Origin: a virus | IMG/VR virus record: IMGVR_UViG_3300045988_049297 | Reading direction: 5' to 3' (one strand) | DNA: 45,341 bases | Shown: piece after piece, positions 598 through 45,341 of the stretch | Layout of the letters: each line of letters begins with the position of its first letter | Numbering within the stretch: the first letter of the stretch is position 1 | Position numbers and translations under genes: made by a program | The notes under the pieces: model-generated | Told to the model about the DNA's origin: nothing | Databases searched by the model: none | What the model saw: only the letters and a program-made list of their open reading frames with translations

Positions 598-1383
598 TTA
601 CCTCCTGTATCTGGTCACGCTGTTGACAATCAACTCGACCTCGGATTGAGGGAGCGGCGGCTTGCAAGCCTGTTGATTGGCATACAGCAGTTCTTTGTAA
701 ATCTCTGCTTTGGTGTATCCTTGGTTGTGAAGCTGACCCGCCAGAGAAGTCAGGCTGAGGTTCCGGCTTCCCGGTGTGATAGGCGGGTATTCAGGCTTCA
801 AATGCAGCTTGCCATTTTCGGGGCGGCGGTAGATGGGGGAATAGATACGCTGAGGGGCGACCGTACCTGAGCTACTTTCCTTCGGCGTGTCGGGAAAATA
901 CTTCTCGATCACATAGTCAATCGCTGACTGGTTTTCAACGATCTCGGAGAAGATCAAAACCTCGCCGGTCATGATGAAGTACCGATTGCTCTTGTAAATC
1001 TCCACGGCGGCACGGTTGTTCTTACCCTTGAAGGGCAGCTCGCCACGAACGAGAATGTGAACCCCTCTCCCGCTTCTGGACTTTTCCGTGTAGGAGTGGC
1101 AACGACCAATAATGTCAGCCGCCAGAGGGTTTAGAAGCCCATCAGTAAAGCCATCGTCAATGTCGATACCTACAACCCCTGTATCGTGAAACACATAGCC
1201 AAGACCGTCATAGTAGCCGTGCTGGACATTGTGTTCAGCGTCAATGTAATTTGACCATGTATCCGGGTTAGATGAAGAAGCCGCCTTTCTGACGGTGGCC
1301 TGCATGGGAACCTTTGACCCGTCCCATACATTGACCCATGCCTTTTCCCCTCGAAGTTCAGCGGGTATATTCAAATAGCTCAT
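598..1383 (-). CDS. Archaeo-eukaryotic-type DNA primase-polymerase (prim-pol) with PriCT-1-like C-terminal domain
   Basis: AEP motifs GVVGIDIDD and SRSGRGVHILV. C-terminal NLSLTSLAGQLHNQGYTKAEIYKELLYANQ..LPQSEVELIVNSV resembles PriCT-1. GAGG RBS 7 nt before ATG 1383. Confidence 0.75.
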   Translation of the reverse strand: MSYLNIPAELRGEKAWVNVWDGSKVPMQATVRKAASSSNPDTWSNYIDAEHNVQHGYYDGLGYVFHDTGVVGIDIDDGFTDGLLNPLAADIIGRCHSYTEKSRSGRGVHILVRGELPFKGKNNRAAVEIYKSNRYFIMTGEVLIFSEIVENQSAIDYVIEKYFPDTPKESSSGTVAPQRIYSPIYRRPENGKLHLKPEYPPITPGSRNLSLTSLAGQLHNQGYTKAEIYKELLYANQQACKPPLPQSEVELIVNSVTRYRR

Positions 1384-3471: not shown

Positions 3472-4068
3472 TCACACCCCCGCAACATGGCTTGCCAGCA
3501 TATCGGCTTGGTGTGTCCACAGCACATTCGGGTAGTTGCGAACAGCACGGGTGTAGTCATTCCACTCTGACTTGTCGGTGAAAGCGCCCATGTGATAGCG
3601 GATACACATGATTTCTTCCTCGGTCAGTGTGTAGAACTGAGAGAGAAGCATAATGGACTTATCGCCGTGACCTTTCAGAAGGGTGTCGGGGTTGTACTCC
3701 CACGCCCGTTCGTCATAGATTGGTGTACGACCACCATTAAATTCTTCAAAGTGACCTGCTACCGGGTGACGGTACTGGTCGATCTTGCACAGGTCATGGA
3801 ACATACCCACGATGTAGGGAGAGCGGGACTTGTGCCAGATCAGGTGATTGTCCTGCGTGAGCGTCAGGAGGAACTTCGTGACCATGTAGGAGTGTTCCAG
3901 AAGACCTCCCTCGTAGTTGCCGTGGTACTTGGTGGAAGCAGGAGCGGTGAAGAAGCCGTAGGCCATCAGGTACTCCATCAGGTCATCAGAAACAACAGGG
4001 GTTCCGTCAGGCAGCTTCATAAAGTTCAGAAAATCGGTCACTTCGGACTTTGAGAAGCAGTCAGGCAT
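3472..4068 (-). CDS. HD-domain phosphohydrolase
   Basis: HD ligand motifs YHG..GGLLEHS, MFHDLCK, GHGDKS, IRYHMG. AAGGAG RBS 8 nt before ATG 4068, so the ORF-track start at 4158 is rejected. Confidence 0.75.
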   Translation of the reverse strand: MPDCFSKSEVTDFLNFMKLPDGTPVVSDDLMEYLMAYGFFTAPASTKYHGNYEGGLLEHSYMVTKFLLTLTQDNHLIWHKSRSPYIVGMFHDLCKIDQYRHPVAGHFEEFNGGRTPIYDERAWEYNPDTLLKGHGDKSIMLLSQFYTLTEEEIMCIRYHMGAFTDKSEWNDYTRAVRNYPNVLWTHQADMLASHVAGV

Positions 4069-11222: not shown

Positions 11223-12619
11223 TTCGACACCTCCTGTTCGATGAATTTACAACCGCACTTGCGGTAAGTGGTGCACCGCTTCTTATAGCTTCGCACGAGG
11301 TACTGGATACCATCGTCCACATAATCGTAGGCAATCGGCTCACCCTTTCCCGTGAAGGTACGAGCGATACGACCAATGCTCTGAGTTATTACAGCATAGT
11401 CCTTCTGCGGTGTGGTCAAATACAAGCGGTCGAGCCGGGGAATATCCAGTCCTTCCTTTGCCAGTGAATAGGTAGCGAACAGATACCGCTTGCGCCCCTG
11501 CCGCATTTCCTCAATGGCCTGTTCTCGGAGAGCCTTGGCTTTCTTCGTGGTCATCTTCCCATCAATCATGACCGCCTGTTTTCTCAGGTCAGCAGGGAGA
11601 TTGTTCATTAGATATTTCAAGTGGCTCAACCGGTCGGAAAGAATGAGGTTAAAATGGTCATAGTTTACAACGAGATCATGCATAATCAGAAGGTTTCGTT
11701 CAAAATTATCAGCGAGATAATTAACCAACTTGGCATAGATGATCGTACCGTCTGTGTCCAAAAACTCACGGCTTAGTCCTTGATGTGTGGCACGGGGTAG
11801 AACGCTGACAGTCATGATCTTGTCTTTTACCGCTTCGTCCGGTACTTGATAGGCAATCCCGCCCAGCAAGGCGTAGGTGGCAGCAATCATACCGTCTGCC
11901 CTGTGAACCGTGGCAGATAGACCGTACTTGTGCCGAGCTGCCAGAGCGTTCAACACCTTTGAGAACTGTGTCATAGCGGTCGGAGTTCCGGCCACGCGGT
12001 GGCACTCGTCCACGATGATACAATCCCAAACATCACGGTACTGGCGCAGATCGAGATTGCACATAGTCTGTACCGTTGCGAAGGTGATTGCCTTACCGAT
12101 TTGAACCCTACCTTCGGTGATCGTGCCGATCAGAGAAGGACTCATGTACTGCTCCGCTCGGCTTTTGCTCTGTACGAGCAAATCCCGTGTATGGGTCAGC
12201 CAGAGTGTCCTTCGACCTGTATCTGCCGCAACAGCAATTCCGATCTGCGTCTTACCGCACCCCGCAGGGGCTTGAAGAATACCATAGTAGGCAGTTATCA
12301 GGGCTTCCTTGGCTTCTACTTGGTAATCATAGAGTGGGATGGTGCAACCGAAGTCTACCTCGGTCGGTGTAGGAAGATTGACCTTCATGTGGCAATCGTC
12401 CATCGCCAGCACATCGTTCAAACACCCGTAGGGGAGAACCAGCGTGTCACCGTCCCATTGGAACAGGTACAACTTCTCAGGAGTATTGCCTGTCCAGAAA
12501 CCCATACGTTTTTTCTTGATGTATTCGGGATTAGAAAGGATGAGCTGCTTCTTGCACCATGTAAGCAACTGCTCAGACGGGTTTTCAATTCGGAGCTGGT
12601 TGCCAACAGTTACTTGCAT
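11219..12619 (-). CDS. SF2 (DEAD/DEAH, ResIII-like) DNA helicase
   Basis: Walker A APAGCGKT, DECH box (IIVDECHRV), motif III SAT, motif VI QSIGRIAR. ATG 12619 is preferred over GTG 12631. Confidence 0.85.
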   Translation of the reverse strand: MQVTVGNQLRIENPSEQLLTWCKKQLILSNPEYIKKKRMGFWTGNTPEKLYLFQWDGDTLVLPYGCLNDVLAMDDCHMKVNLPTPTEVDFGCTIPLYDYQVEAKEALITAYYGILQAPAGCGKTQIGIAVAADTGRRTLWLTHTRDLLVQSKSRAEQYMSPSLIGTITEGRVQIGKAITFATVQTMCNLDLRQYRDVWDCIIVDECHRVAGTPTAMTQFSKVLNALAARHKYGLSATVHRADGMIAATYALLGGIAYQVPDEAVKDKIMTVSVLPRATHQGLSREFLDTDGTIIYAKLVNYLADNFERNLLIMHDLVVNYDHFNLILSDRLSHLKYLMNNLPADLRKQAVMIDGKMTTKKAKALREQAIEEMRQGRKRYLFATYSLAKEGLDIPRLDRLYLTTPQKDYAVITQSIGRIARTFTGKGEPIAYDYVDDGIQYLVRSYKKRCTTYRKCGCKFIEQEVSK

Positions 12620-13021: not shown

Positions 13022-13042
13022 ATCACTCCTTTACAAGTGAAT
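13022..13042 (-). repeat. 21-bp direct repeat, copy 1 (ATTCACTTGTAAAGGAGTGAT on minus strand)
   Basis: Identical 21-mer at 13022..13042 and 13476..13496. Here it encodes the C-terminal SLVKE-stop of the Zn-ribbon gene and carries the RBS for the RecU-like gene. Confidence 0.95.
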
Positions 13043-13477
13043 TAGCCATATCGTTGAGCCACACTTTGAGATCGTCTAGTGTGGACAAATTCGCTTGTTT
13101 AAATTTCTCATCCCATTCCTTCTCTGCTGACGAAAATCCGTAAGAAATATAATCCCTTTTTACGGATTTGTACCTCTTGTCAAGCTCACTCATTTCATTT
13201 AGCCACGATTCGGTCTTGTTATCTACGGCGAGGTTTTCAAACCATTTTTTATATGGAGACAAAATGGGTTCCCGCTTTTGGATTCTCTGCTGCAAGCGTG
13301 TATATTTTAAGCGCACAGGATCAGCTTTTAATTTCTCATATTTAGCTTTGTTTCGGATGAGAATGTCTCGGCAATGGGGACAATACTTCCCGCTTGTTTT
13401 GGGGATAAATGCTTTACCACAATCCTTACACGCTATAACTCTAATATCGGTGCTTATTTTCGCTTTCGTTGCATCAT
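13023..13477 (-). CDS. Zn-ribbon protein; no in-frame start for the ribbon part (possible -1 shift or indel)
   Basis: The frame is open from 13484 and encodes ..CKDCGKAFIPKTSGKYCPHCR.., continuous with the 97-aa ORF (GTG 13316). The only good start (AAGGAG + ATGATG at 13477..13472) is in the +1 frame and stops after 7 codons (TAA 13456..13454). Confidence 0.45.
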
Positions 13478-13496
13478 CACTCCTTTACAAGTGAAT
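13476..13496 (-). repeat. 21-bp direct repeat, copy 2
   Basis: Same 21-mer. Here it supplies the AAGGAG RBS and the first ATG of the Zn-ribbon gene. Confidence 0.95.
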
Positions 13497-14417: not shown

Positions 14418-14433
14418 TTCCCGTTGACGGGAA
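14418..14433. promoter_or_regulatory. Operator O2: TTCCCGTTGACGGGAA (perfect 7+2+7 palindrome)
   Basis: Same half-site as O1, 51 bp away centre to centre, ending 2 nt upstream of the repressor RBS (GGAGG, 14436..14440). Confidence 0.55.
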
Positions 14434-14447
14434 CGGAGGAAAACACG

Positions 14448-15077
14448 ATGACTTTCTATGAGCGGCTGACCGAACTACGCAGAGAAAAGGGATTAACTCA
14501 GAAACAGATTGTTGATGAACTCGATCTCGGTAAAAATTCTTTTGGGGACTGGAAGAGAGGGGCTATCCCTGTCCGTTCCACTCAGCAACTTCTTGCCAAA
14601 TATTTCGGGGTATCGGTTGATTACCTTATGGGAAAAACTAATAACCCCATTCCTAATACGGAAACGGTAGGCACCTACATTCCGTATGAGAAACAGGGTT
14701 TGCGTCCAGTCATCGGTTTAGCTTCGGCAGGAACAGGGGTGATTGCAGAAGAAATGATTGTTGGTTGGGAAACAGTTGATGACGAATACGATAACGACAA
14801 CTGCTTTTGGCTCGAAGTATCTGGTAACAGCATGGCACCACAGATTGATAATGGCGATAGAGTGCTTATTCAGCGGGACGCAGAAATCGAGAGTGGCTGT
14901 ATTGCCGTGGTCGTGGTAGACGGTACAGACGGGTTTTTAAAACAAATCGAGTTCGGTGAGAACTCCACCTCGCTTCACTCGTTTAATCCGTATTATCCCG
15001 ACATGGAGTTTGTAGATGCCGACCAGAAACGTTTGCACTTTGTCGGTCGCGTCCGGGAAATGAAGCGGAGGTTCTGA
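14448..15077 (+). CDS. CI/LexA-like repressor (XRE HTH + S24 peptidase domain)
   Basis: N-terminal HTH LTQKQIVDELDLGKNSFGDWKRG. C-terminal S24 motifs GNSMAP (Ser) and DGFLKQI (Lys). GGAGG RBS before ATG 14448. Confidence 0.85.
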   Translation: MTFYERLTELRREKGLTQKQIVDELDLGKNSFGDWKRGAIPVRSTQQLLAKYFGVSVDYLMGKTNNPIPNTETVGTYIPYEKQGLRPVIGLASAGTGVIAEEMIVGWETVDDEYDNDNCFWLEVSGNSMAPQIDNGDRVLIQRDAEIESGCIAVVVVDGTDGFLKQIEFGENSTSLHSFNPYYPDMEFVDADQKRLHFVGRVREMKRRF

Positions 15078-15078
15078 T

Positions 15079-16743
15079 ATGCGCCAGAAGTTTAAGATCG
15101 ACCTCTCTATGCTGACCCCGGAAGAACAGCAGCAGTTTCGTGATGACCCTACCACCCTGACCAAAGGTGAAGTTGATGTCGCTTTGTACCTTCGGTTCAG
15201 TTCGGAACGGCAGAAAGAACAGTCCATTGAGGGGCAGCTTCGAGACTGTATTGCGTACTGTAAGCGCAAGAGCTTCCGCATTGTCGCCATTTATGTTGAC
15301 CGTGCTACTACTGCTCGGAAAGATGTAGAGAAGCGAGTCCATTTTCAGGAGATGATTTCCGACAGCGCTCATCATCTCTGGAACTTCGTGGTCGTGTGGA
15401 AGCTCGACCGCTTTGCCAGAAATAGAGAAGACAGCGCCGTGTTCAAAATGCGGCTGCGGAAGAATGGAGTTCGGGTCAAATCCGCAACCGAAACAATCTC
15501 TGATAACCCCGAAGGTATCATCTTAGAGTCTGTACTCGAAGGTATTGCCGAATACTATTCGGCAGACCTCAGCCAGAAAATCACTCGCGGATTGAGAGAG
15601 TCAGCCATGAAGGGTCATTCCGTTGGTGGCCATGTCCCGTTGGGCTACAAAATCGAAGATCATAGACTTGTAATAAATCCGGCAACCGCCCATATCGTAC
15701 AAGAAGCATTTCAACTCTACGCCAATGGCGAGAGCATGGCTGAGATTTGCCGTATCTTCAACGGCAAGGGCTACCGTACCGCCAAAAACTCGGAGTTTAA
15801 CCGAAGCAGTTTTAAATCCATGTTTAAAAATGTGCGGTATATCGGGACATACATCTACAAAGACATAAAGAAAGAAAACGCCATCCCAGCCATCATCGAC
15901 AAAGACCTCTTTGAAACGGTGCAACGGCGGCTTTCTTTGGCTGCTGACGCGCCCGCAAGGGGTAAAGCCAAGGTGGATTACCTCCTATCTGGAAAGCTGT
16001 TCTGCGGGCATTGCGGGGCTACTATGAACGGGGAAAGCGGTACGAGTAAAACCGGAGCTATCCACAACTACTACACCTGCTATTCACGGAAACGGCGAAA
16101 GGGCTGTGATAAGAAGCCATTAAAGAAAGATTTCATTGAACGCATTGTCGCACAGGACGCTATGGCGCTGCTTACCAACGATGTGATTGAGGAACTGGCC
16201 GACATGGCTATGTCGCAGGCGGACAGGGACTTGAAAGAAAACACCCGCATTCCTGAACTATCTACCAGACTCACCGAGATTGAACAAGGTATCAACAACA
16301 TCACTAAGGCCGTTGAAAAAGGAATTGCGTCTGACGCTCTCCTGGATCGCCTGACTGAGTTGGAGAAGGAAAAGAAAGACCTGACCTCTCAGCTTCGGGA
16401 AGAAGAAAAATACATCTACCGAATTGACAGAGATCAGGTGGTATTCTGGCTGACGAAGTTCCAAGGAGGCGATATAGAAGACGAGGATTGCAGGCGGCGC
16501 ATCATCGACCTTCTGGTAAATTCCGTGACGGTATGGGACGAACCTGACGGATATAAAATTACCACCGCATACAACCTCACTTCCTGCAAAACAAAGACTT
16601 TCCGGGTCAGCAACAACGCTGACTCTCCTTCCGGGGAAGGGTTCGGATTTGGGGAGCTATCGTCCACCATTGGACGCATATCCGAACCCTACATTGTGTG
16701 GGGAACGGTATTCGTCCAAACCAAAAGACACTCCTTGTCTTAA
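15079..16743 (+). CDS. int: Large serine recombinase (integrase)
   Basis: Resolvase catalytic domain (VALYLRFSSERQ), recombinase domain, Zn-ribbon CGHCG..YYTCYSRKRRKGC, coiled-coil (LTEIEQGINNITKAVEKG..LTELEKEKKDL). 554 aa. Confidence 0.9.
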   Translation: MRQKFKIDLSMLTPEEQQQFRDDPTTLTKGEVDVALYLRFSSERQKEQSIEGQLRDCIAYCKRKSFRIVAIYVDRATTARKDVEKRVHFQEMISDSAHHLWNFVVVWKLDRFARNREDSAVFKMRLRKNGVRVKSATETISDNPEGIILESVLEGIAEYYSADLSQKITRGLRESAMKGHSVGGHVPLGYKIEDHRLVINPATAHIVQEAFQLYANGESMAEICRIFNGKGYRTAKNSEFNRSSFKSMFKNVRYIGTYIYKDIKKENAIPAIIDKDLFETVQRRLSLAADAPARGKAKVDYLLSGKLFCGHCGATMNGESGTSKTGAIHNYYTCYSRKRRKGCDKKPLKKDFIERIVAQDAMALLTNDVIEELADMAMSQADRDLKENTRIPELSTRLTEIEQGINNITKAVEKGIASDALLDRLTELEKEKKDLTSQLREEEKYIYRIDRDQVVFWLTKFQGGDIEDEDCRRRIIDLLVNSVTVWDEPDGYKITTAYNLTSCKTKTFRVSNNADSPSGEGFGFGELSSTIGRISEPYIVWGTVFVQTKRHSLS

Positions 16744-16762
16744 AACAAGGGGTGTCTTTTTT
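16727..16762 (+). terminator. Rho-independent terminator of the integrase operon
   Basis: GACACTCCTTGT (16727..16738) pairs with ACAAGGGGTGTC (16745..16756), with one G-U pair, followed by TTTTTT (16757..16762). Confidence 0.75.
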
Positions 16763-16766
16763 GTTT

Positions 16767-16875
16767 AGGTGATAAAGGTGAGTAATCGGGCGTTTTTCCT
16801 ATAAACTATCTCTAATACGCGCGTATTAAGGAGAAGTTATAGGGATTTTGACCCGATTACTCACCTTTATCACCT
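16767..16875. repeat. Nested palindromic element, copy A (109 bp)
   Basis: The outer 24-nt arm AGGTGATAAAGGTGAGTAATCGGG (16767..16790) is the perfect reverse complement of 16852..16875. Inner imperfect dyad at 16798..16843 around the perfect 16-mer TAATACGCGCGTATTA (16813..16828). About 83% identical, in direct orientation, to 40433..40541. Confidence 0.9.
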
Positions 16876-16937: not shown

Positions 16938-17201
16938 TCATTTATCCGTCAGTTGCTTGATCGACTGATTAAGTCCCGTTGCCGCCCAGCCGGAAACGAT
17001 ACCGACAGCCGCAGCGTCCAGCCAGTTATCGGCCGGGTAACTGGGCACGCCCATCACCCATGCCACCACACCGAGCGCCAGCCCGGTCACGCCGCAGATA
17101 ATGGGAATCCACTTGTCTGCCACATTGGTGGCCTTAACTGCCATGCCTACCAGATACGCGATGGCGGTGATCGCCGCCACAGATGCAATACCAAAATCCA
17201 T
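16938..17201 (-). CDS. Holin
   Basis: 87 aa with TM segments (IASVAAITAIAYLVGMAV, IPIICGVTGLALGVVAWVMGV, AAAVGIVSGWAATGL) and a charged C-terminus. Last gene of the lysis cassette. AAAGGGG RBS before ATG 17201. Confidence 0.75.
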   Translation of the reverse strand: MDFGIASVAAITAIAYLVGMAVKATNVADKWIPIICGVTGLALGVVAWVMGVPSYPADNWLDAAAVGIVSGWAATGLNQSIKQLTDK

Positions 17202-17214
17202 ATGTATACCCCTT

Positions 17215-17529
17215 TCAGTTTTCTGTCGGTAGCTGCAAGAATTTACTGTGAATGTCATCCATCACGCCGTTGACTCCAAGTGCATGATATTGTTTCCAGC
17301 AATTCTCAAAATTCTGTCGGGCATAGATCGGGGCGTAACCCCGATCATGCCATTTGTTGTAATCTGCGATCATCTGCGCCCGCAGCAGGGCCTGTACGCC
17401 CAGTTTGGTCGCCGCAGTGTCCGCACGGTCATGCCTGATCTGCGTCGCCAGATGCCGGATCATGGCCAGCAGCGCCGCGATCAGCAGCGATGGCACGCCC
17501 AGCAGGCATAGCCACTGATATGTAGTCAT
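17215..17529 (-). CDS. Lysis-cassette membrane protein (single N-terminal TM)
   Basis: ATGA overlap with the amidase stop. TM segment WLCLLGVPSLLIAALLAMI followed by a soluble domain. Its role (holin partner or regulator) was not recognised. Confidence 0.55.
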   Translation of the reverse strand: MTTYQWLCLLGVPSLLIAALLAMIRHLATQIRHDRADTAATKLGVQALLRAQMIADYNKWHDRGYAPIYARQNFENCWKQYHALGVNGVMDDIHSKFLQLPTEN

Positions 17530-20322: not shown

Positions 20323-21129
20323 TCAGTAGCTCACCTCCGTGCCATCAGGCAGGGCGGCTATGACGCTGTTGACAATCTCCTGCTTATCAGCTGCCGTCCA
20401 ATAGTCCGTGCCTTTAACGGGCGTGTGACCGTCCTTGCCGGGCACGCCAGCAGGGCCGGTTGCACCAGCCGCCCCCGGTTTGCCATCCGCGCCGGGTGCG
20501 CCGTCCTTGCCCGGAGCGCCAACTGGGCCTTGCGAACCCGCCGGGCCGGGATCGCCCTTATCACCCTTTGGGCCGGGCTCGCCTCTTGGGCCTTGCGAAC
20601 CGTCCGCACCCTTGAGCTCGGCCACGGCGATGAGATTTTGCCACGTGCTGCCGCTGTCCGTGCTATACTGCACGTAGCCGTCCGCCACGCGCAAGTCCAT
20701 GCTTCCCGCGCCGCCTGTCAGTGCCACCTCGTTGATAGCAGCCACCAGCGTGTCCTTTGCCTCCGTCGTCAGGTCGGCAAGGTCGCCGATCTGACGCTGG
20801 ATCGTCTGCAGCGTCATCTGGTCTGTCGGGGTGTAAACGTAGTCTGACGGTTTGGGACGTGCAAATACAGGAAAATTGACCTGCACCTCGGTGTAACCGC
20901 CGTTAGTATCGGAAACCCAAGCGTATACAATTAGTTTTCCGGGAACTTGCAGTAGTTCATCGGGGATCGCCGCTTTTCCGTTTTTAACCTCGACAGTATA
21001 CGGAATATCGGTTACTTTCTCGGTGCTTGTGAAATGTGCTTGTGAAACGGCATCTTCACCGAACTCGATGATTCTGCCGGTATCCCATTGAAACAGTTCT
21101 CCACGTCCATCTGCGAGTTCAAGTGTCAT
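20323..21129 (-). CDS. Collagen-like tail fibre / BppU-N-like baseplate protein
   Basis: N-terminus ELFQWDTGRIIEF resembles the BppU N-domain. 20 uninterrupted G-X-Y triplets (aa 174-233, nt 20428..20610). Confidence 0.65.
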   Translation of the reverse strand: MTLELADGRGELFQWDTGRIIEFGEDAVSQAHFTSTEKVTDIPYTVEVKNGKAAIPDELLQVPGKLIVYAWVSDTNGGYTEVQVNFPVFARPKPSDYVYTPTDQMTLQTIQRQIGDLADLTTEAKDTLVAAINEVALTGGAGSMDLRVADGYVQYSTDSGSTWQNLIAVAELKGADGSQGPRGEPGPKGDKGDPGPAGSQGPVGAPGKDGAPGADGKPGAAGATGPAGVPGKDGHTPVKGTDYWTAADKQEIVNSVIAALPDGTEVSY

Positions 21130-36540: not shown

Positions 36541-36630
36541 TTATAAAATTTTGGGAATGATAAACGCCAACACCAAAAGGATGAATATCACTTCAATCAC
36601 AAAACCAATAAACTTGAAAAAATATTTCAT
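36541..36630 (-). CDS. 29-aa hydrophobic peptide (candidate small membrane protein)
   Basis: Not in the ORF track. ATGA overlap with the upstream stop. Hand translation: MKYFFKFIGFVIEVIFILLVLAFIIPKIL. Followed by the 36465..36505 terminator. Confidence 0.35.
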   Translation of the reverse strand: MKYFFKFIGFVIEVIFILLVLAFIIPKIL

Positions 36631-37103
36631 TGGGCTATCATCTCACAATCTGACCACGATCCTGCGCTAAGACATTCCCCAATAAAGGTAATCGTGTCTC
36701 CGACTTTTACGGTTTTGAGATTATCTTCTTGGTCTTTCTCGAACTCAGCATAGAAAACAACAATAGTGTTATCAACTTTAGTTTCAAGAGTTAGGGTTGC
36801 TCCACCAGTAAGATTAAATAGGCCGTCGTTCGTCATCCCATCGATCTTAGCCGTGATTTGATAACGATTATGCTTATACATATCATCTGCCACCAGCTCG
36901 TTATCTTTATAGGCTCTATAAATCTCATCGAAGGTGGCCGTACCCACTTCGTTCATTAGAAGCTCTGGTGTAGGAGTAACTTCGATCTTGGAATCTCCAT
37001 TTTCCGTTAAGCTATCGTCTTGCCCGAAGATGGCAATTATCGAACTAATTGCGATAATAATTACGACAATCCAAAGCCAACGCTTTTTCTTCTTTGTCTT
37101 CAT
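36627..37103 (-). CDS. Membrane-anchored OB-fold (tRNA_anti-like-type) protein; candidate exclusion/moron protein
   Basis: N-terminal Lys-rich segment plus TM (WLWIVVIIIAISSIIAIF). C-terminal FDEIYRAYKDNELVADDMYKHNRYQITAKIDG..VGDTITFIGEC resembles the OB-fold family of membrane lipoproteins. The gene is visibly AT-rich. Confidence 0.55.
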   Translation of the reverse strand: MKTKKKKRWLWIVVIIIAISSIIAIFGQDDSLTENGDSKIEVTPTPELLMNEVGTATFDEIYRAYKDNELVADDMYKHNRYQITAKIDGMTNDGLFNLTGGATLTLETKVDNTIVVFYAEFEKDQEDNLKTVKVGDTITFIGECLSAGSWSDCEMIAQ

Positions 37104-37873
37104 TCATCACCAGCTCCCTTCAAAATCGGCTCGTGAACGCCCTTGACCCAATTCATATTCCCGTATTTATACATACCCTCGTACAGAGGACGGTTGCCGA
37201 GAATACTTTTGATGGTGGACACCTGAAACCGCTTGCCAGAACGGGTCTGGTATCCCGCCTTTTCCAGCAGCTCCGTGATACCCAGCATGGAAACGCCGTC
37301 CTCGTGCTTCTCGAAGATGAACTTCACGATAGGAGCTTCCTGCTCGTCAATAGTGAGAACACCATCAACTACCTTGTAGCCGTAAGGACGGCGACCACCG
37401 CTGTATCCACCGCAGGAAGCCTTGATGGAACGACCCTTGCCGGTTCGCAGAGCGATGTTCTTTCTCTCCTGCTCTGCCACGAATTGAAGCAGCGCACGGT
37501 AGATGTTGGCGAACTCGCTGCCCTCTGTGAAGCTCTCCTGCGTACTCAGAAGTTTGATGTTCTTCTTTTCCAGCACATACAGGTAGTAAAAGTACAGCTT
37601 GGTATCACGAGCCACACGATCATTCTTGAATACGATCACCGCTTCATAGGGAGGGTTGCTTACATCATCGCCGTATAGAATGGAGTTCAGGCCGGGACGG
37701 TCATCTTTCGTACCGCTGATTTCATCAATCTTCCAGTCTACGATGTTATAGCCGTTGTCGTTGGCGTAAAGAAGAATAGCCTGCTTCTGAACCTCGATAC
37801 CGTATTTGTCATCATCGGCCTGCCGTTCGGTGGAGACTCGGATATAGCCGATTGCATTTTTGAATGTCATCAT
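37100..37873 (-). CDS. Truncated serine recombinase (catalytic + recombinase domains; no Zn-ribbon or coiled-coil)
   Basis: AIGYIRVSTERQ (catalytic Ser), ..VIVFKNDRVARD.., GGRRPYGYKV. Ends ..VKGVHEPILKGAGDE, where large serine recombinases normally continue into the Zn-ribbon. ATG 37873 follows the promoter at 37893..37921. Confidence 0.75.
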   Translation of the reverse strand: MMTFKNAIGYIRVSTERQADDDKYGIEVQKQAILLYANDNGYNIVDWKIDEISGTKDDRPGLNSILYGDDVSNPPYEAVIVFKNDRVARDTKLYFYYLYVLEKKNIKLLSTQESFTEGSEFANIYRALLQFVAEQERKNIALRTGKGRSIKASCGGYSGGRRPYGYKVVDGVLTIDEQEAPIVKFIFEKHEDGVSMLGITELLEKAGYQTRSGKRFQVSTIKSILGNRPLYEGMYKYGNMNWVKGVHEPILKGAGDE

Positions 37874-37892
37874 AAGATCACCCCTTGCGTAT

Positions 37893-37921
37893 AAGATAGC
37901 ATAGGTAAATGTAATTGTCAA
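37893..37921 (-). promoter_or_regulatory. Island promoter 1: TTGACA-17-TATCTT
   Basis: Minus strand: TTGACA (37921..37916), spacer ATTACATTTACCTATGC, TATCTT (37898..37893). The -35 is flanked by direct TTACCTAT repeats (plus-strand ataggtaa at 37901..37908 and 37921..37928). Shares ATGCTATCTT with promoter 39508..39536. Confidence 0.5.
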
Positions 37922-38049
37922 TAGGTAAGTGTAAATAAGCCTTTTTATTTTTTGCGGGTATTTTTCAGCTCACCCCGCCCTCGCCGCCGCTGGCATATCC
38001 CCCGGCCCCATCACCCATTCACGCCGCCCCGATCGGGCCGGAAAAGCGC

Positions 38050-38082
38050 AAAAAATAACCGCCCCGGTGCTATCCGGGGCGG
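38050..38082 (-). terminator. Rho-independent terminator after the four-gene cassette
   Basis: Minus strand: CCGCCCCGG-ATAGCA-CCGGGGCGG, then TTATTTTTT (stems at 38074..38082 and 38059..38067). Confidence 0.75.
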
Positions 38083-38159
38083 CGTTCACTTATTCAGTTT
38101 TAGTATGTCAATCAAAATTTGCACCGGCAGGAAAAGCAGCAGAAGAATAATATACAATC

Positions 38160-38483
38160 TTATCCAACCTCCACAATTTTCAAAACATGATAGCGCCCTA
38201 ACACGGTATAAATAGCTGACTTATTCGGCGCGTATAGCTCCATAATTCCATAGTAGCGAGTTTTCACCCAATACACCCGGCAAAACTCACGCAAGGAAAA
38301 CGCCCACCCGCCAATTTTAACAACAGGAGTTTGCAACGTTTTTATTGTTGCGAATTGCCTATAATATTCCTTTATGGCGTTTTTATCGCCGTTTTCGTAT
38401 GCCGCAATGGCTACAGCAACGCGGGATTTTAACGCGCTTTCAATCGGCACGGGCTCCCAATTCACAAATCGCCAATAATTCAT
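38160..38483 (-). CDS. Hypothetical protein (107 aa), island cassette gene 4
   Basis: Compact operon arrangement. AT-richer than the phage backbone. No family recognised. Confidence 0.55.
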   Translation of the reverse strand: MNYWRFVNWEPVPIESALKSRVAVAIAAYENGDKNAIKEYYRQFATIKTLQTPVVKIGGWAFSLREFCRVYWVKTRYYGIMELYAPNKSAIYTVLGRYHVLKIVEVG

Positions 38484-38485
38484 AA

Positions 38486-38743
38486 TTAAACCCCCATTCT
38501 AATACATTCATCAAGCGGGATTTTGTACCCGTCAACCCTAAAAAATGCGCTGTCTTTATCGTTTGCGGGGTAATAGATTTTACACCGATGAAAACGCCGA
38601 GCGGCTTTCCCGCCGTACCAACAACCCGAAACACAATAAACAAAATCATTTACACCGCATTCAATGCCCTTTATTTCAAGCCCATTCAAGCCGCTGTAAT
38701 AGGCGATACTTTCCCGGCTTTCGCAATACTCGCGTTTATTCAT
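38486..38743 (-). CDS. Hypothetical Cys-containing protein (85 aa), island cassette gene 3
   Basis: Overlaps the upstream gene by 8 nt. No family recognised. Confidence 0.55.
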   Translation of the reverse strand: MNKREYCESRESIAYYSGLNGLEIKGIECGVNDFVYCVSGCWYGGKAARRFHRCKIYYPANDKDSAFFRVDGYKIPLDECIRMGV

Positions 38744-39080
38744 GGCGTGTTACCTCATCAATAAATGCCCTTGCAAGCTGTTTAAGCTGTTCCCGCTGTT
38801 CCTTCCACGCAAGCGAATAATTATAGCGGATTTTTTCCGCGTCCGTTTCGTACCGTTCCCGCAATTCATAGGACGGGCGAATATTTCCGAATGGGGCATA
38901 TCCGGTCACAATGGCAACCCCGCCGCCCATATCGTAAATATCAGCCGCCCACCCCTCGCGGCGTACCGTGTACGCAACCGGGCTTTCATAATTCAAAAGG
39001 TTTTGCAATCCGCAATAGGGCACGCAAATAATATCATTGTAATTCGCCCGGATTGCCTTTTGTGTTGTCTTGAATTTCAT
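38736..39080 (-). CDS. Hypothetical protein (114 aa), island cassette gene 2
   Basis: VPYCGLQNLLNYESPVAYT..GWAADIY..VTGYAPFGN resembles a family I recall from Firmicutes plasmids, ICEs and phages with unknown function. This is unverified. Confidence 0.55.
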   Translation of the reverse strand: MKFKTTQKAIRANYNDIICVPYCGLQNLLNYESPVAYTVRREGWAADIYDMGGGVAIVTGYAPFGNIRPSYELRERYETDAEKIRYNYSLAWKEQREQLKQLARAFIDEVTRHE

Positions 39081-39094
39081 TTAACACACCCCTT

Positions 39095-39454
39095 TCAATA
39101 ATTCATGTTGCTAGCTGCACGGCGGTTATACATGGCTCTTAAACTTTCGGCGGGGGTCATATCCGCCGCCATACTGTAACGGGGCGTTTCTTCCACCGAA
39201 AGCGCGTCCCACCATGCTTTCCCACCACCATTTATATTATAGAATGAAAGAAAGCTATTTACATGGCGCATTGTAGTAACAGAATAACCGCCCCACATAC
39301 GAACGAACCGCCCCGCCGCCGTGATACGGCAAACAAAAGTATTATAGGACTGTAAAACTTTTTCGCCGTTTTCCGTTTCAATGATTTTCGCCTTTCCGTA
39401 AAAACTCTTTGCCCGATCAGAACCGCAAACGGGTAAATCAAAAATTTTTTTCAT
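39095..39454 (-). CDS. Hypothetical protein (119 aa), island cassette gene 1
   Basis: AAAGGGG RBS 9 nt before ATG 39454. KAKIIETENGEKVLQSYNTFV..YSVTTMRHVNSF pattern recalled from mobile-element proteins. This is unverified. Confidence 0.55.
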   Translation of the reverse strand: MKKIFDLPVCGSDRAKSFYGKAKIIETENGEKVLQSYNTFVCRITAAGRFVRMWGGYSVTTMRHVNSFLSFYNINGGGKAWWDALSVEETPRYSMAADMTPAESLRAMYNRRAASNMNY

Positions 39455-39507
39455 GATATAAGCCCCTTTCAAAATTCAATTTGCATTTACTGCCTTTCGG
39501 TAAATAC

Positions 39508-39536
39508 AAGATAGCATATTTGTATTTACCTGTCAA
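39508..39536 (-). promoter_or_regulatory. Island promoter 2: TTGACA-17-TATCTT with a 10-bp inverted repeat around the -10
   Basis: Minus strand: TTGACA (39536..39531), spacer GGTAAATACAAATATGC, TATCTT (39513..39508). GGTAAATACA and TGTATTTACC (39499..39508 and 39521..39530) bracket the -10. Confidence 0.55.
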
Positions 39537-39722
39537 GTGTAAACGCAAAAGAAAATCAAGATTTTTTGTAAATGGGGGCGCTATACATTATAAAGGGCAA
39601 AAACGCGGCCCCGATCAGGCCGGGCACCGACAGCGCCCACGCGGCCCCGGTAGAACCCGCCGCCGATCAGCCGGGGAAAGGAAAAGCCGCCGACCTCGTG
39701 GGGAGATCGGCAGCTCTGTCAA

Positions 39723-39857
39723 AGTCGCTGACCCTCGCCGGAAAGTCGTAAAGTCGTTCGGGCGAAAGTCGCAAAAGTCGTGGAAAAGTCGTAAAGTCGC
39801 TCGGCATAGTCGTAAGCTATAGTCGCAAAAGTCGCTCAATCCTCCGAGTCATAGTCG
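39723..39857 (-). repeat. Array of 11 same-orientation heptamers A(A/T)AGTCG(C/T) (minus strand CGACT(T/A)T) at the 3' end of terS
   Basis: AGTCG cores at 39723, 39744, 39752, 39767, 39776, 39787, 39795, 39808, 39821, 39830 and 39853 (spacing 8-23 nt). Two more at 40406 and 40425 flank the terS start. One inverted copy at 40080..40086. Confidence 0.9.
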
Positions 39858-40405
39858 CCGGATGCACCAACCACATCTTCGAGATACTTCTTCTCCAAGT
39901 CCTCAGCGGGAACCTGATCTCCGAGCTGCTGGTTGGGTGTCAACACGACCTCCTGCTTGTCCGCATAGCCCATGTTGTTCTTCATCAGGAAGATACCGGC
40001 GACCGGATTGATCTTCCCGTTCTGCATATAGTTTTCCATCTGAGCGTTCAAAAAATAATACGCCTTTTTTAGTGTGGTACGACTTTCGGTGGGGATATAG
40101 GCGCTATCCACACCATTACACCAACACCACAGAGTTTTTCTATCAACCCCGAACGCCAATGCCATACCAGCAACAGAGGGTTTCATATCATCTTCGGCAC
40201 AAATCCGAAAGTAATTCCCAATACGCTCAGTCACAGCTTCCGGTTTGGTCATATCCACAGCAGGCCAGTCCCACATTTTCAGATCGTGTTCAATAAACTT
40301 CCGATTATCTCCCGGTTGAAGCTGTGCGGTACTATCGGGCCGCTTATTACCGCCAGTACCTTTCGGTCTGCCACGACCGCGCTTTTCCACAATTTCATCT
40401 GCCAT
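39836..40405 (-). CDS. terS: Terminase small subunit (gp3 DNA-packaging-protein type)
   Basis: N-terminal GRGRPKGTGG, HTH-like PSVAGMALAFGVDRKTLWCW, ..KINPVAGIFLMKNNMGYADKQEV.. This matches the gp3-type small terminase pattern as I recall it. Acidic C-terminus. Confidence 0.7.
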   Translation of the reverse strand: MADEIVEKRGRGRPKGTGGNKRPDSTAQLQPGDNRKFIEHDLKMWDWPAVDMTKPEAVTERIGNYFRICAEDDMKPSVAGMALAFGVDRKTLWCWCNGVDSAYIPTESRTTLKKAYYFLNAQMENYMQNGKINPVAGIFLMKNNMGYADKQEVVLTPNQQLGDQVPAEDLEKKYLEDVVGASGDYDSED

Positions 40406-40432: not shown

Positions 40433-40541
40433 AGGTGATAAAGGTGAGTAATCGGGTGCATTTCCCTATAACTATTTCTATATACGCGCGTATAAGAGAG
40501 AGTTATAGGCATTTATGCCCGATTACTCACCTAACTCACCT
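40433..40541. repeat. Nested palindromic element, copy B
   Basis: Same 24-nt left arm as copy A (40433..40456). Inner dyad at 40465..40509 around TATACGCGCGTATA (40481..40494). Right arm CCCGATTACTCACCT + AACTCACCT (40518..40541). About 92 of ~111 hand-aligned columns match copy A in direct orientation. Confidence 0.9.
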
Positions 40542-40557
40542 AAAATACGAAAAACAA

Positions 40558-40584
40558 TTTTTCAAAACGCGCCAATTTGAAAAA
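40558..40584. repeat. AT-rich dyad TTTTTCAAA-N9-TTTGAAAAA
   Basis: Arms at 40558..40566 and 40576..40584, within a very AT-rich ~60-bp stretch between two sets of TCACCT iterons. Confidence 0.8.
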
Positions 40585-40600
40585 AGTCTTTGCAAAAACA

Positions 40601-40625
40601 CTCACCTTTATCACCTTTATCACCT
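40601..40625. repeat. Three tandem 9-bp iterons (TCACCTTTA x2 + TCACCT)
   Basis: TCACCT at 40602, 40611 and 40620, with exact 9-bp phasing. Overlaps the stop codon of the XRE-family gene. Confidence 0.9.
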
Positions 40626-40845
40626 AACGGCGGCGTCCGATATATTCATCAATGCTAATCCGCAATGCGTCCGCAAGCAGCTCGATAGTATCAATTCGCC
40701 CATTTCGCGCTGTGCCACGTTCCAGTGCGTAGATCGTGGTTGCGGGCACACCTGAAATCCGCGACAGTTGTGTTGCTGACATCTTAGCCCTATTACGTGC
40801 TTTACGCATACTCTCGCCCTTTGTCATTACCATTTTGTGCTTCAC
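40624..40845 (-). CDS. XRE-family HTH transcriptional regulator
   Basis: MSATQLSRISGVPATTIYALERG is a canonical Cro/CI-type HTH. The start is uncertain (GTG 40845, or ATG 40809 giving MRKARNRAKMSATQ..). Confidence 0.8.
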   Translation of the reverse strand: MKHKMVMTKGESMRKARNRAKMSATQLSRISGVPATTIYALERGTARNGRIDTIELLADALRISIDEYIGRRR

Positions 40846-43316: not shown

Positions 43317-43492
43317 TACGAACGCTCCTTCACAATGCGGATTTTTCTCAGGCGCTTGCCGCACCGCTTACAGACTTCATAATTGCTCTGCCAACGATGA
43401 GAACCATTACGGTACTTGACCTGAATGTGAACATACGGGTCTACCGAGTGAATACCGAAGCGGCAGAGGATAGAGTTACATGAACGGTTCAT
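43316..43492 (-). CDS. Small Zn-finger-like protein (58 aa)
   Basis: MNRSCNSILCRFGIH..CKRCG. TAATG overlap with the helicase stop. Confidence 0.45.
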   Translation of the reverse strand: MNRSCNSILCRFGIHSVDPYVHIQVKYRNGSHRWQSNYEVCKRCGKRLRKIRIVKERS

Positions 43493-45000
43493 TAGGACGC
43501 TCCTTTCAGTCTGAGGTTCTTGTAGACGGGGTAGCCCTGATACACGACCTTGCCGCCGTGCCACTCAGGGTGCGTTTCCATGTCGGCATTGAACCGCTTG
43601 GCAGAACAGGCAAAGTACCCGTTGGACTTGCACCAAATCTTGTATGCGTCAAACAGAGACTTCGAGCGGGTGTTGACCCCCTCAGCTTGCTCACAGCGTT
43701 CTTCGAGGAACTGCAAGCACAGATCGTTGTCACGCTCGTACTGGTTGACTACCTTCCGCATGGCGGGGGACATTTTCAGACCGAACCGCTTGTACTTGAA
43801 GTATCCGGCGACCAGCCAAGCGAAAATGCCCTGCATAGCTTCCTGTGTCTGGAACTCATTTTTCAGGTTCTTGTCCTGCTCCGCTTCGGTGAAGTGGCGG
43901 TTAAACTCAATGACCCGTACACGGTCGGAAGCGAACAGGGACTTATCGCTGACGGTGGGAAGATCGTTACAGGAAAGCCAAAGGGTGAACTGCGGCAGGA
44001 AGGTCGTGGCAGTCTCATAGAGGTTCCGAGCCTTGATTTCCTCGCCGCCTGTGAGCTGCTTGATCGTTTCCTCGTCCAGCTTGCCATACTGGTTGCTCTC
44101 TGCCATCGTGACGAACCGCTTGCCTTTCAGGGAAGCCAGCATGGGGTTCGCTGCTTCGGCGTTCTTCGACCGTTCTGCCTTGCAGATGATTGACACGGGG
44201 GACACGGACGCATAGTCACCGAGAAGGTGGTGAATTGCCGAGAGCATGGTGGACTTACCGTTGCGAGTGGTCTTGCCGTGGAGAATGAACATACATTCCT
44301 CGTTCGCCATACCCAGCATGGAGTACCCCAGCGCCTTTTGAAGATAATCAGCCTTGTCTTCGTCATTACAAGTGACTTCCGCAACAAACTTCTCCCAGCG
44401 GCGGCACCGTGCGTCCTGCAAGGTGTAGTTGAAGTTGGTCTGCATAGTCAGGAAGTCTTTCCAATCATGTTCCCGGAACTCCATTTTTTCGAGGTCGAAA
44501 GTGCCGTTCTTGCAGTTGATAAGGTAGGGGTTTGCGTCAAACTCCGCCGAAGCGATAGGAAGCACACTGGCAGCGTCCTTCATCAGCCGATCACGGAAGC
44601 GCCGGTCGCCCATCTTCACGATGAACTTCATGTACTCGGAACGCCGTTCTTCGTTGGCAATCTCACCGCAGTAGAGAGCCATCAGGCGGCAGAACTCTTT
44701 GATCTTTTCCGCTACCAGCAGAGAACCCGTGTCCTTGCGCCATGCGCCCTCGGAGTAGGTGAACCAGCTTTTCGCTTCGGGGCAGTAGCGGGTATCATTC
44801 TTGTAGCACTCGGAGAACAGCTCCGCCATGCCGGACTCGTCCCACGAATACCCCGTGCCGCTGATCGGGTGGCTATGCTCAGGCTGTGCTTCCTTAATCT
44901 GAAACATCACTCTGGACTGAGCTTCGTCCATGATGTAGCGACCGTTGGAGAGCTGAAAAAGAGCCTGTTCTTCGGGGGCGGTCATAATTTCATCAGCCAT
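43492..45000 (-). CDS. D5_N / P4-family SF3 replicative helicase (primase C-terminal-type)
   Basis: D5_N-like ANPYLINCKNGTFDL, Walker A HGKTTRNGKST, Walker B-like RFVTMAES, SCNDLP. C-terminal winged-helix-like KSLFDAYKIWCKSNGY. AAGAGG RBS before ATG 45000. Confidence 0.85.
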   Translation of the reverse strand: MADEIMTAPEEQALFQLSNGRYIMDEAQSRVMFQIKEAQPEHSHPISGTGYSWDESGMAELFSECYKNDTRYCPEAKSWFTYSEGAWRKDTGSLLVAEKIKEFCRLMALYCGEIANEERRSEYMKFIVKMGDRRFRDRLMKDAASVLPIASAEFDANPYLINCKNGTFDLEKMEFREHDWKDFLTMQTNFNYTLQDARCRRWEKFVAEVTCNDEDKADYLQKALGYSMLGMANEECMFILHGKTTRNGKSTMLSAIHHLLGDYASVSPVSIICKAERSKNAEAANPMLASLKGKRFVTMAESNQYGKLDEETIKQLTGGEEIKARNLYETATTFLPQFTLWLSCNDLPTVSDKSLFASDRVRVIEFNRHFTEAEQDKNLKNEFQTQEAMQGIFAWLVAGYFKYKRFGLKMSPAMRKVVNQYERDNDLCLQFLEERCEQAEGVNTRSKSLFDAYKIWCKSNGYFACSAKRFNADMETHPEWHGGKVVYQGYPVYKNLRLKGAS

Positions 45001-45328
45001 TTTTAACACCTCTTTTCATCTTTGGCGGCTTCGGTAAAGGTGTCCAAGCTAAGACCTTTACTTTCTGCCCTTGTGCCACCTCACCACCCCAATTTCCGTT
45101 GAACTGGTATCCGATACCGAAGGCCTGATACATTTGGTTATACTCTCCGAAACGGAAATACTCGTACCAGCAAAGTACATTTTCGCCATTCGGAGGTAAT
45201 GCTTCATTTGCCAAAGTCCAAGTTACAGGAATGGTTTCCACGATAGGTATTTTTTTTATAGCGAGAAATGCCGTAGGAATATCTCGGACAGCATTTAAGG
45301 CGGTAGTTAGATTGATATATCGACCCAT
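44993..45328 (-). CDS. DUF551-like protein (111 aa)
   Basis: W-x-x-x-x-E-x-LPP-x-G-x-x-VL pattern (WTLANEALPPNGENVLCWY) as in DUF551 phage proteins. Its start lies inside the terminal repeat. Confidence 0.5.
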   Translation of the reverse strand: MGRYINLTTALNAVRDIPTAFLAIKKIPIVETIPVTWTLANEALPPNGENVLCWYEYFRFGEYNQMYQAFGIGYQFNGNWGGEVAQGQKVKVLAWTPLPKPPKMKRGVKNG

Positions 45329-45341
45329 ATATTCTTACTTC
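45249..45341. repeat. Terminal direct repeat, copy 2
   Basis: Identical to 1..93. Confidence 0.95.

Follow-up and report, generated by a model that had tools for sequence, protein, structure and literature searches.

A 109-bp nested palindrome stands between the integrase and the lysis genes of a virus genome from IMG/VR and recurs at the other end of the late genes, which raises the question of what reads such an element and why the phage carries it twice. The most likely answer is that the palindrome and its twin are two copies of the phage replication origin and that this origin would be of a known kind. Specifically, we propose, at a probability of roughly 0.6, that both palindromes are cognate binding and loading sites of the SF3 helicase of the phage, working together with its primase. 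The origin type is already known; what is new is the duplicated, co-evolving pair. A literature search found no paper on this phage family or on the element.

Genomic setting and anatomy of the two palindromes

The window, which is the whole stretch of 45,341 nt analyzed here, bears a perfect 93-bp direct terminal repeat (1-93 and 45249-45341) and is therefore taken as a circular or complete assembly; most likely the repeat reflects overlapping ends of a circular assembly, and the complete genome would measure about 45.2 kb. The minus strand holds nearly all genes, with the exception of the large serine integrase and a cI-like repressor (14424-15077). Because of this one-sided gene arrangement GC skew is uninformative about the origin, and over the window it tracks gene orientation without any origin signal. 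The main features are collected in Table 1. Primase (Pri) and helicase (Rep) are separate genes in this phage, as they are in most SaPIs, and between the helicase and copy B of the element lie accessory genes spanning 2.9 kb. Additionally, the replication genes include a DNA polymerase, a DEAD-type helicase, a YqaJ exonuclease, an Erf-like annealing protein and a Hjc/RecU-like resolvase.

Apart from these, three further regions of the window were recorded. A small-gene island of about 3.4 kb (36627-39839) between terS and terL encodes a serine recombinase of 273 aa that lacks a zinc ribbon (37100-37921), along with an OB-fold protein. The gene-poor stretch beside the cI-like repressor contains a perfect 21-nt direct repeat, ATCACTCCTTTACAAGTGAAT, at 13022-13042 and 13476-13496, with a 76% copy at 11449-11469, and these repeats are candidate operators of the lysis/lysogeny switch. 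Finally, three GC-rich repeats spaced by 63-72 bp in the tail-fibre region (20437-20606, a stretch of 58-60% G+C) may represent a collagen-like repeat.

Table 1. Position, strand and character of the palindromic elements and of the genes discussed with them (coordinates of the window).
Feature	Position	Strand	Remarks
Copy A, palindromic iteron element, 109 bp	16767-16875	.	two AGGTGA + TAATCGGG per side, inward-pointing; 61-bp core, 66% A+T
Copy A, left arm	16767-16790	+	iterons 16767-16772 and 16776-16781, then GTAATCGGG
Copy A, AT-rich core	16791-16851	.	imperfect inner dyad CCTATAAAC...TACGCGCGTA...GTTATAGG; candidate unwinding region
Copy A, right arm	16852-16875	-	iterons TCACCT 16861-16866 and 16870-16875
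Copy B, 109-bp element as in A	40433-40541	.	27-bp gap to the terS start codon
Spacer of the B module, 58 bp, very AT-rich	40542-40599	.	72.4% A+T; kept in relatives
Direct iteron cluster, three units	40600-40626	-	TCACCT at 40602, 40611 and 40620 on the + strand
D5/P4-type SF3 initiator-helicase	43492-45009	-	D5_N, DUF5906, Pox_D5; proposed iteron-binding protein
Primase, helicase partner	598-1383	-	prim-pol N-terminal part + PriCT_1
Terminase small subunit, terS (GP3_package)	39836-40405	-	opens the late block; neighbours B, without covariation
Large serine integrase, int	15079-16743	+	neighbours A, without covariation
Hol44-family holin	16938-17258	-	adjoins copy A
Probable attP core	16634-16676	+	tmRNA 3'-end mimic GGTTCG...TCCACCA in the last int codons

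The arms of copy A follow the layout AGGTGA-N3-AGGTGA-G-TAATCGGG. The geometry given by the original prediction was reproduced throughout: the 24-nt outer arms are perfect (100% complementary), the inner dyad (16798-16822 and 16819-16843, 80% complementary) is centred on TAATACGCGCGTATTA, and the second copy, expected to match at about 83%, does so with 83% identity in direct register and fits better that way than in inverted orientation (80%). Likewise, copy A does lie between the predicted terminators of int (16723-16760, plus strand) and of the lysis genes (16922-16895, minus strand), just past the holin. Since copy B lies immediately before terS and copy A between the int and holin terminators, the two copies bracket the late block, as had been stated.

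In both copies, two hexamers per side, opposed to each other, flank the AT-rich core. With 65.6% A+T the core reaches the 97.7th percentile of 61-bp windows of the genome (49.5% A+T overall), and the spacer beside copy B reaches the 99.9th percentile. The only sites in the 45 kb with the arrangement AGGTGA-N3-AGGTGA are copy A, copy B and a cluster next to B in which TCACCT occurs three times in direct orientation (40602-40625); this cluster was absent from the original description of the element. The motif TCACCTWWA was observed seven times against 0.98 expected, a count reached in no shuffle. The B module holds seven iterons and copy A four, the published range for SaPIs being six to twelve.

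Distribution in relatives and coupled change with the helicase

The arm CCCGATTACTCACCT matched at least 119 IMG/VR contig stretches, nearly all of them from the human gut, with an arm spacing of 76-77 bp. A pattern scan of 185,579 species genomes gave six full copies among the 120 matches listed, five of them in Dysosmobacter, Oscillibacter, Brotocaccenecus and a Clostridiales, and the sixth on a 2.2-kb contig binned as Bacteroidaceae. The copy counts of both scans are lower bounds. A widespread host element of the REP type had been named as the finding that would overturn a phage function, and all six of these copies, among the matches listed, stand in phage gene contexts. A host REP or MITE family was accordingly discarded, the element having in addition two fixed contexts per phage, a B-type before terS and an A-type in the lysis/int region. 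In relatives the B-type element stops 23-28 bp short of terS, and this gap hardly varies: it is 26-28 bp in 62 of the 71 loci with the element, and 23-26 bp by a second measure. The A-type element either lies 26-39 bp past the int stop codon or precedes a holin-like gene by about 25 nt, int then being about 1.76 kb off. Conservation of both copies in related phages, proposed earlier as a check, was found in 13 further contigs, including an isolate genome contig of D. segnis BX15; the copies are 19.8-23.9 kb apart and in direct orientation in 12 of the 13.

The arms of copy A are invariant over 48 unique variants of the family, and the hexamers stay constant while the trinucleotide spacers beside them vary freely. 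Two to five direct iterons accompany copy B in relatives (none at one locus, by the counting pattern used). Chimeric A/B elements (L090, L013/L148 and L045) and flipped copies (L035 and L059) were also present, and they would fit occasional gene conversion between A and B. At the outer edge of the direct iteron cluster (40624-40626 in the window, and in relatives) at least four unrelated upstream genes end exactly, which marks this edge as a recurrent mosaic breakpoint. In one sister lineage, with TAGTGA hexamers, an extra GC-rich hairpin, CCTTGTGGCGCAAGG, occupies the left half of the element upstream of terS (L324, L361 and similar loci) and extends the element to about 170 bp in both copies.

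The helicase of the window carries the Pfam domains D5_N, DUF5906 and Pox_D5, and its best solved homologue is the SaPI5 primase-helicase 7OLA (phmmer, residues 158-482, E-value = 9.5e-13). An AlphaFold model had a mean pLDDT of 66, with the ATPase core below 50, and Foldseek matched it to the ASFV PrimPol, to the SaPI5 protein and to MPXV E5. The protein is thus of the self-loading SF3/D5 initiator type. Its C-terminal part (380-505) was modelled as helices and a beta hairpin (pLDDT about 60-90) and may form a winged helix.

Across about 200 related gut (Oscillospiraceae) phage contigs, iteron type partitions perfectly with helicase and primase. Phages with AGGTGA arms encode helicases 96.1-99.8% identical to that of the window (n = 102), against 88.2% or less for those with other arms, and primases 84.9-100% identical, against 77.8% or less; neither pair of ranges overlaps. 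The ranges do overlap for TerS (59-95% against 34-78%), for Int (40-95% against 77%), and for TerL and portal. Eleven helicase lineages could be distinguished, each with a hexamer of its own, the sister lineages using TAGTGA, TAGGGGGT, AGTAGGG, GGTAGTT, TGATACGG and others. Between lineages, substitutions in the helicase fall in the N-terminal 50 or so and the C-terminal 100 or so residues, and the ATPase core is almost invariant. These correlations suggest that the iteron sequence is specific to the cognate helicase.

Module swaps point in the same direction. Relative L252 has a TerS 88% identical to that of the window and the end of a window-type primase, with the helicase swapped for a D5-like one of 20% identity. 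Its region 244-2480 consists of a 45-codon stump of the window-type helicase, a MerR-like gene, the unrelated D5-like helicase and a new iteron region, in which TGATACGG iterons surround a 112-bp AT-rich palindrome before terS, the architecture being unchanged. Relatives of this second helicase each have their own hexamer directly after the stop codon, and iterons directly follow the helicase stop in L252 and L447-L453. Conversely, L391 combines a TerS of 34% identity with a helicase of 84% and TAGTGA-type arms. L494 carries tandem palindromes between helicase and terS (11498-11866), with near-identical cores and different hexamers (GGTAGTT versus AGTGTCT), and a remnant of another helicase C-terminus separates the two by preceding the second. 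In L499 the inner dyad of the window is flanked by AGTAGGG, 10 bp past the stop of a 69%-identical helicase, and in L497 the helicase stop is followed after 45 bp by the palindrome, then by two genes and only then by terS; over L494, L497 and L499 the distance from stop codon to palindrome is 10-45 bp. In the close relatives L116 and L120/L274 the gap is about 450-590 bp. Helicase and origin thus appear to be exchanged as one cassette, with breakpoints at the edges of the element.

The covariation is that of the whole replication module: helicase and primase are separated only in L252, where 27 primase residues are visible, and another conserved early protein may be the partner of the hexamers. 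One relative with an 82%-identical helicase (L496) showed no palindrome or iterons between helicase and terS (3518-4040). Just after its terS lie GCAGAAAG repeats.

Competing explanations

The strongest rival, on account of the constant spacing of about 25 nt to start codons, is a role in late transcription, in which an early-encoded activator, repressor or antiterminator would act on the hexamers before the packaging genes (B) and the lysis genes (A), perhaps looping or insulating the late block. Some late activators of Gram-positive phages work on direct repeats upstream of terS (TP901-1 Alt, RinA/Ltr family). In several lineages both copies lie about 20-25 nt before a start codon (terS or the holin-like gene), as would also be expected under a transcriptional or translational role. 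Both copies are co-polar with late transcription in 12 of the 13 two-copy contigs, and no terminator was predicted between the early genes and terS. We nevertheless regard such a role as unlikely. No conserved regulator gene accompanies the element, the genes ending at the iteron cluster being of at least four unrelated kinds, and two genes next to copy B, XRE (73 aa) and HTH (101 aa), are found in only a subset of relatives. Moreover, copy A of the window follows two terminators and precedes no gene, the element of L497 stands next to the helicase rather than terS, and no sigma-70-like promoter was predicted on the terS strand. The suggestion that the copies are looping operators insulating the late operon gained no evidence, and a conserved regulator did not come to light.

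Packaging is an improbable function. The small terminase would recognize pac or cos sites, B being the main one and A a secondary one, and the position of B immediately upstream of terS in more than 140 loci would suit it, as would the combination of a dyad with flanking hexamer repeats, a layout akin to those of P1 pac and lambda cosN/cosB. The recognition sequence, however, does not follow TerS: a TerS of 88% identity coexists with unrelated iterons in L252 and one of 34% with TAGTGA-type arms in L391, and invariant arms accompany TerS proteins of 59-95% identity. The element of L497 even lies apart from terS, and a second site half a genome away would have no obvious use.

There is similarly little probability that the elements are conserved linkers at module boundaries, kept through homologous recombination between phages and bound by no dedicated protein. 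Mosaic breakpoints exactly at the element edges, the chimeric A/B elements and the lysis cassettes, which stand on one side of A or the other depending on the lineage, are all compatible with linkers. Such linkers would leave three observations unaccounted for, namely the invariance of the hexamers beside freely varying trinucleotides, their change in step with the helicase lineage, and the recurrence of one architecture with unrelated sequences.

It is very improbable that the element acts as a structured RNA of the late transcript, such as a hairpin processed by RNase III. The element is predicted to fold into a strong hairpin on either strand (z-scores -8 to -11), and in several contexts a start codon follows after about 25 nt, but the pairing is not kept through variation. 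The trinucleotides between iterons are complementary in only 8-10% of the 48 unique variants, with T opposite T in the spacers, and the direct iterons, which lie outside the hairpin, change together with the arms. A search of the element against Rfam gave no match.

Equally doubtful in the extreme are site-specific recombination sites, be it attP or a res/hix-like site for one of the two serine recombinases. Copy A adjoins int, the inner dyad, at about 46 bp, is as long as a site for a serine integrase would be, and in some relatives the halves of the element are exchanged at the centre. Nonetheless, the element is intact beside the host junction in prophages L148, L165, L171 and L005. The end of the host tmRNA gene lies about 110 bp from the element in L148 and L165, as does the end of a tRNA-Arg gene in L005, and in L171 the intact element is about 100 bp inside the tmRNA junction. 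Homology between the window and these prophages runs from the tRNA-like 3' end GGTTCG...TCCACCA, at about 16634-16669 of the window, through the last 27 or so int codons and the terminator into the intact element. From this starting point of homology, the att core is placed within the 3'-terminal part of int, some 100 bp away from copy A. The element is thus not attP, being unsplit in prophages with the real junction (tmRNA or tRNA) about 100 bp away, and the doubt already voiced about copy A as an attP was justified. No half elements occurred among the roughly 115 copies listed, and no contig among the relatives examined joined the flanks of A and B in recombined form. The res-like alternative fares no better. 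Close homologues of the 273-aa recombinase are encoded by only 21 of the 54 element-bearing relatives with both terS and terL (19 at 97-99% and two at 88-89% identity), and another 25 lack any homologue between terS and terL; the gene is missing or replaced in most relatives, and Int varies between 40 and 95% identity while the arms stay invariant. Lastly, AGGTGA/TCACCT resembles the core of a Shine-Dalgarno/anti-Shine-Dalgarno pair, a mimicry rejected because the hexamers of the other lineages are unrelated to it.

The origin model, the second copy and known systems

The replication origin returns as the preferred reading. Copy B together with its spacer and direct iterons is most likely the origin used by the replication module, as the anatomy of the element is that of a SaPI origin and the best solved homologue of the helicase is a SaPI protein. 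SaPI origins have penta- or hexanucleotide iterons immediately downstream of rep around a central AT-rich region, with at least two iterons per side in opposite directions that are bound by the C-terminal winged helix of the self-loading helicase (PMC9371898). The phage resembles this Pri-Rep-ori arrangement in its self-loading D5/SF3-type initiator, in the gene order primase, helicase, origin, in at least two opposed hexanucleotide iterons on each side of an AT-rich centre, and in an iteron sequence specific to the helicase lineage. By analogy, the C-terminal DNA-binding domain of the helicase would recognize the AGGTGA hexamers, and through the two inward-pointing pairs helicase hexamers would come to flank the AT-rich, cruciform-prone core; this core would melt, and replication would start at the element. 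The phage differs from SaPIs in having two copies per genome instead of one, accessory genes between helicase and origin in the window, a core with a conserved inner dyad in place of plain AT-rich DNA, and a replicon that is a complete temperate Oscillospiraceae phage rather than a satellite. The inner dyad is conserved in sequence, beyond its AT-richness, and this feature is unaccounted for by the origin model.

Copy A changes its hexamers in step with copy B in three lineages, those with AGGTGA, AGGTGACCCATTT (L441/L442, on the same contig) and TAGTGA (L329/L347 and L364/L374). We therefore infer that it is a second cognate site for the same initiator, located in the lysis/att region about half a genome from B, and two matched copies so far apart are unusual. 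Plausibly it is a complete site: in L497 and L499 the palindrome is essentially the sole non-coding DNA after the helicase gene, so copy A is not obviously incomplete. In more remote lineages, searches for a second copy with the arms of L252 returned its own contig only, those with the arms of L453 one copy and chance matches, and those with the arms of L499 chance matches only.

The original prediction had listed, among other options, paired cis sites for an SF3 primase-helicase by analogy with ori and crr of phage P4, and this is the best supported of its alternatives, since iteron type tracks the helicase lineage alone. In P4 the alpha protein reportedly binds short iterons both at ori and at the distant crr. 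P4 crr consists of two 120-bp direct repeats 4.5 kb from ori. The likeness extends to a P4-family primase/helicase (relatives are annotated as 'P4 family') and to short iterons at a putative origin and at a distant second site, seen in three lineages and 13 two-copy contigs; here, unlike in P4, the palindrome is repeated in full at the second site, at a distance of about 22-24 kb. The TCACC core that had been likened to the P4 iteron is probably a coincidence, as sister lineages carry other hexamers. A further parallel comes from the Sfi21-type phages of Streptococcus thermophilus, which have a repeat-rich non-coding origin just downstream of a P4-like primase/helicase gene. That origin is present in a single copy, and its sequence is unrelated to the element of this phage.

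Phage SPP1 also has two distant origins, oriL and oriR, with one organization and one initiator, oriR being in the late region; initiator bound at oriR has been proposed to stall the fork and to bring about the switch from theta to concatemeric replication through an exonuclease, an annealing protein and a Holliday-junction resolvase (PMC6316719, PMC3485210). The phage studied here encodes the corresponding YqaJ, Erf-like and Hjc/RecU-like proteins and likewise has two distant matched sites, one of them in the late region. In SPP1, gp38, a loader and a DnaB-type helicase take the place of the self-loading SF3 helicase, the origins are direct repeats with a DNA unwinding element rather than inverted pairs, and oriL lies inside the initiator gene.

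Copy A could accordingly act as a second origin, as a long-range partner of B in the manner of P4 crr to ori, or as an initiator-bound fork barrier for the theta-to-concatemer switch, as proposed for SPP1 oriR. As a tentative extension of these options, a large family of temperate phages of human-gut Oscillospiraceae might possess a pair of complete SaPI-type origins evolving jointly with their self-loading helicase, copy A having a dedicated job beyond the reach of a single origin, such as a fork trap leading to concatemers or firing in situ at the prophage edge. The late block has this second copy at its far end, and the prophage end follows within 0.1-2 kb. If firing in situ were true, neighbouring host DNA would be amplified and mobilized. 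Integration into the host tmRNA gene (tRNA-Arg in another int lineage) would in addition move the last 27 or so int codons and the terminator to the other prophage end. Since the att core lies within int, the C-terminus of Int would then differ between the prophage and the free phage.

For uncultured phages, a palindrome with lineage-specific hexamers beside a D5-type helicase gene would offer a rule for recognizing origins from sequence only, and the same rule would define replicon specificity groups. It would also give phage mosaicism a defined swap unit, the helicase with its origin. At least two cultured lysogens, Dysosmobacter segnis BX15 and Brotocaccenecus cirricatena CLA-AA-H272, are at hand, making the job of the co-evolving second copy testable.
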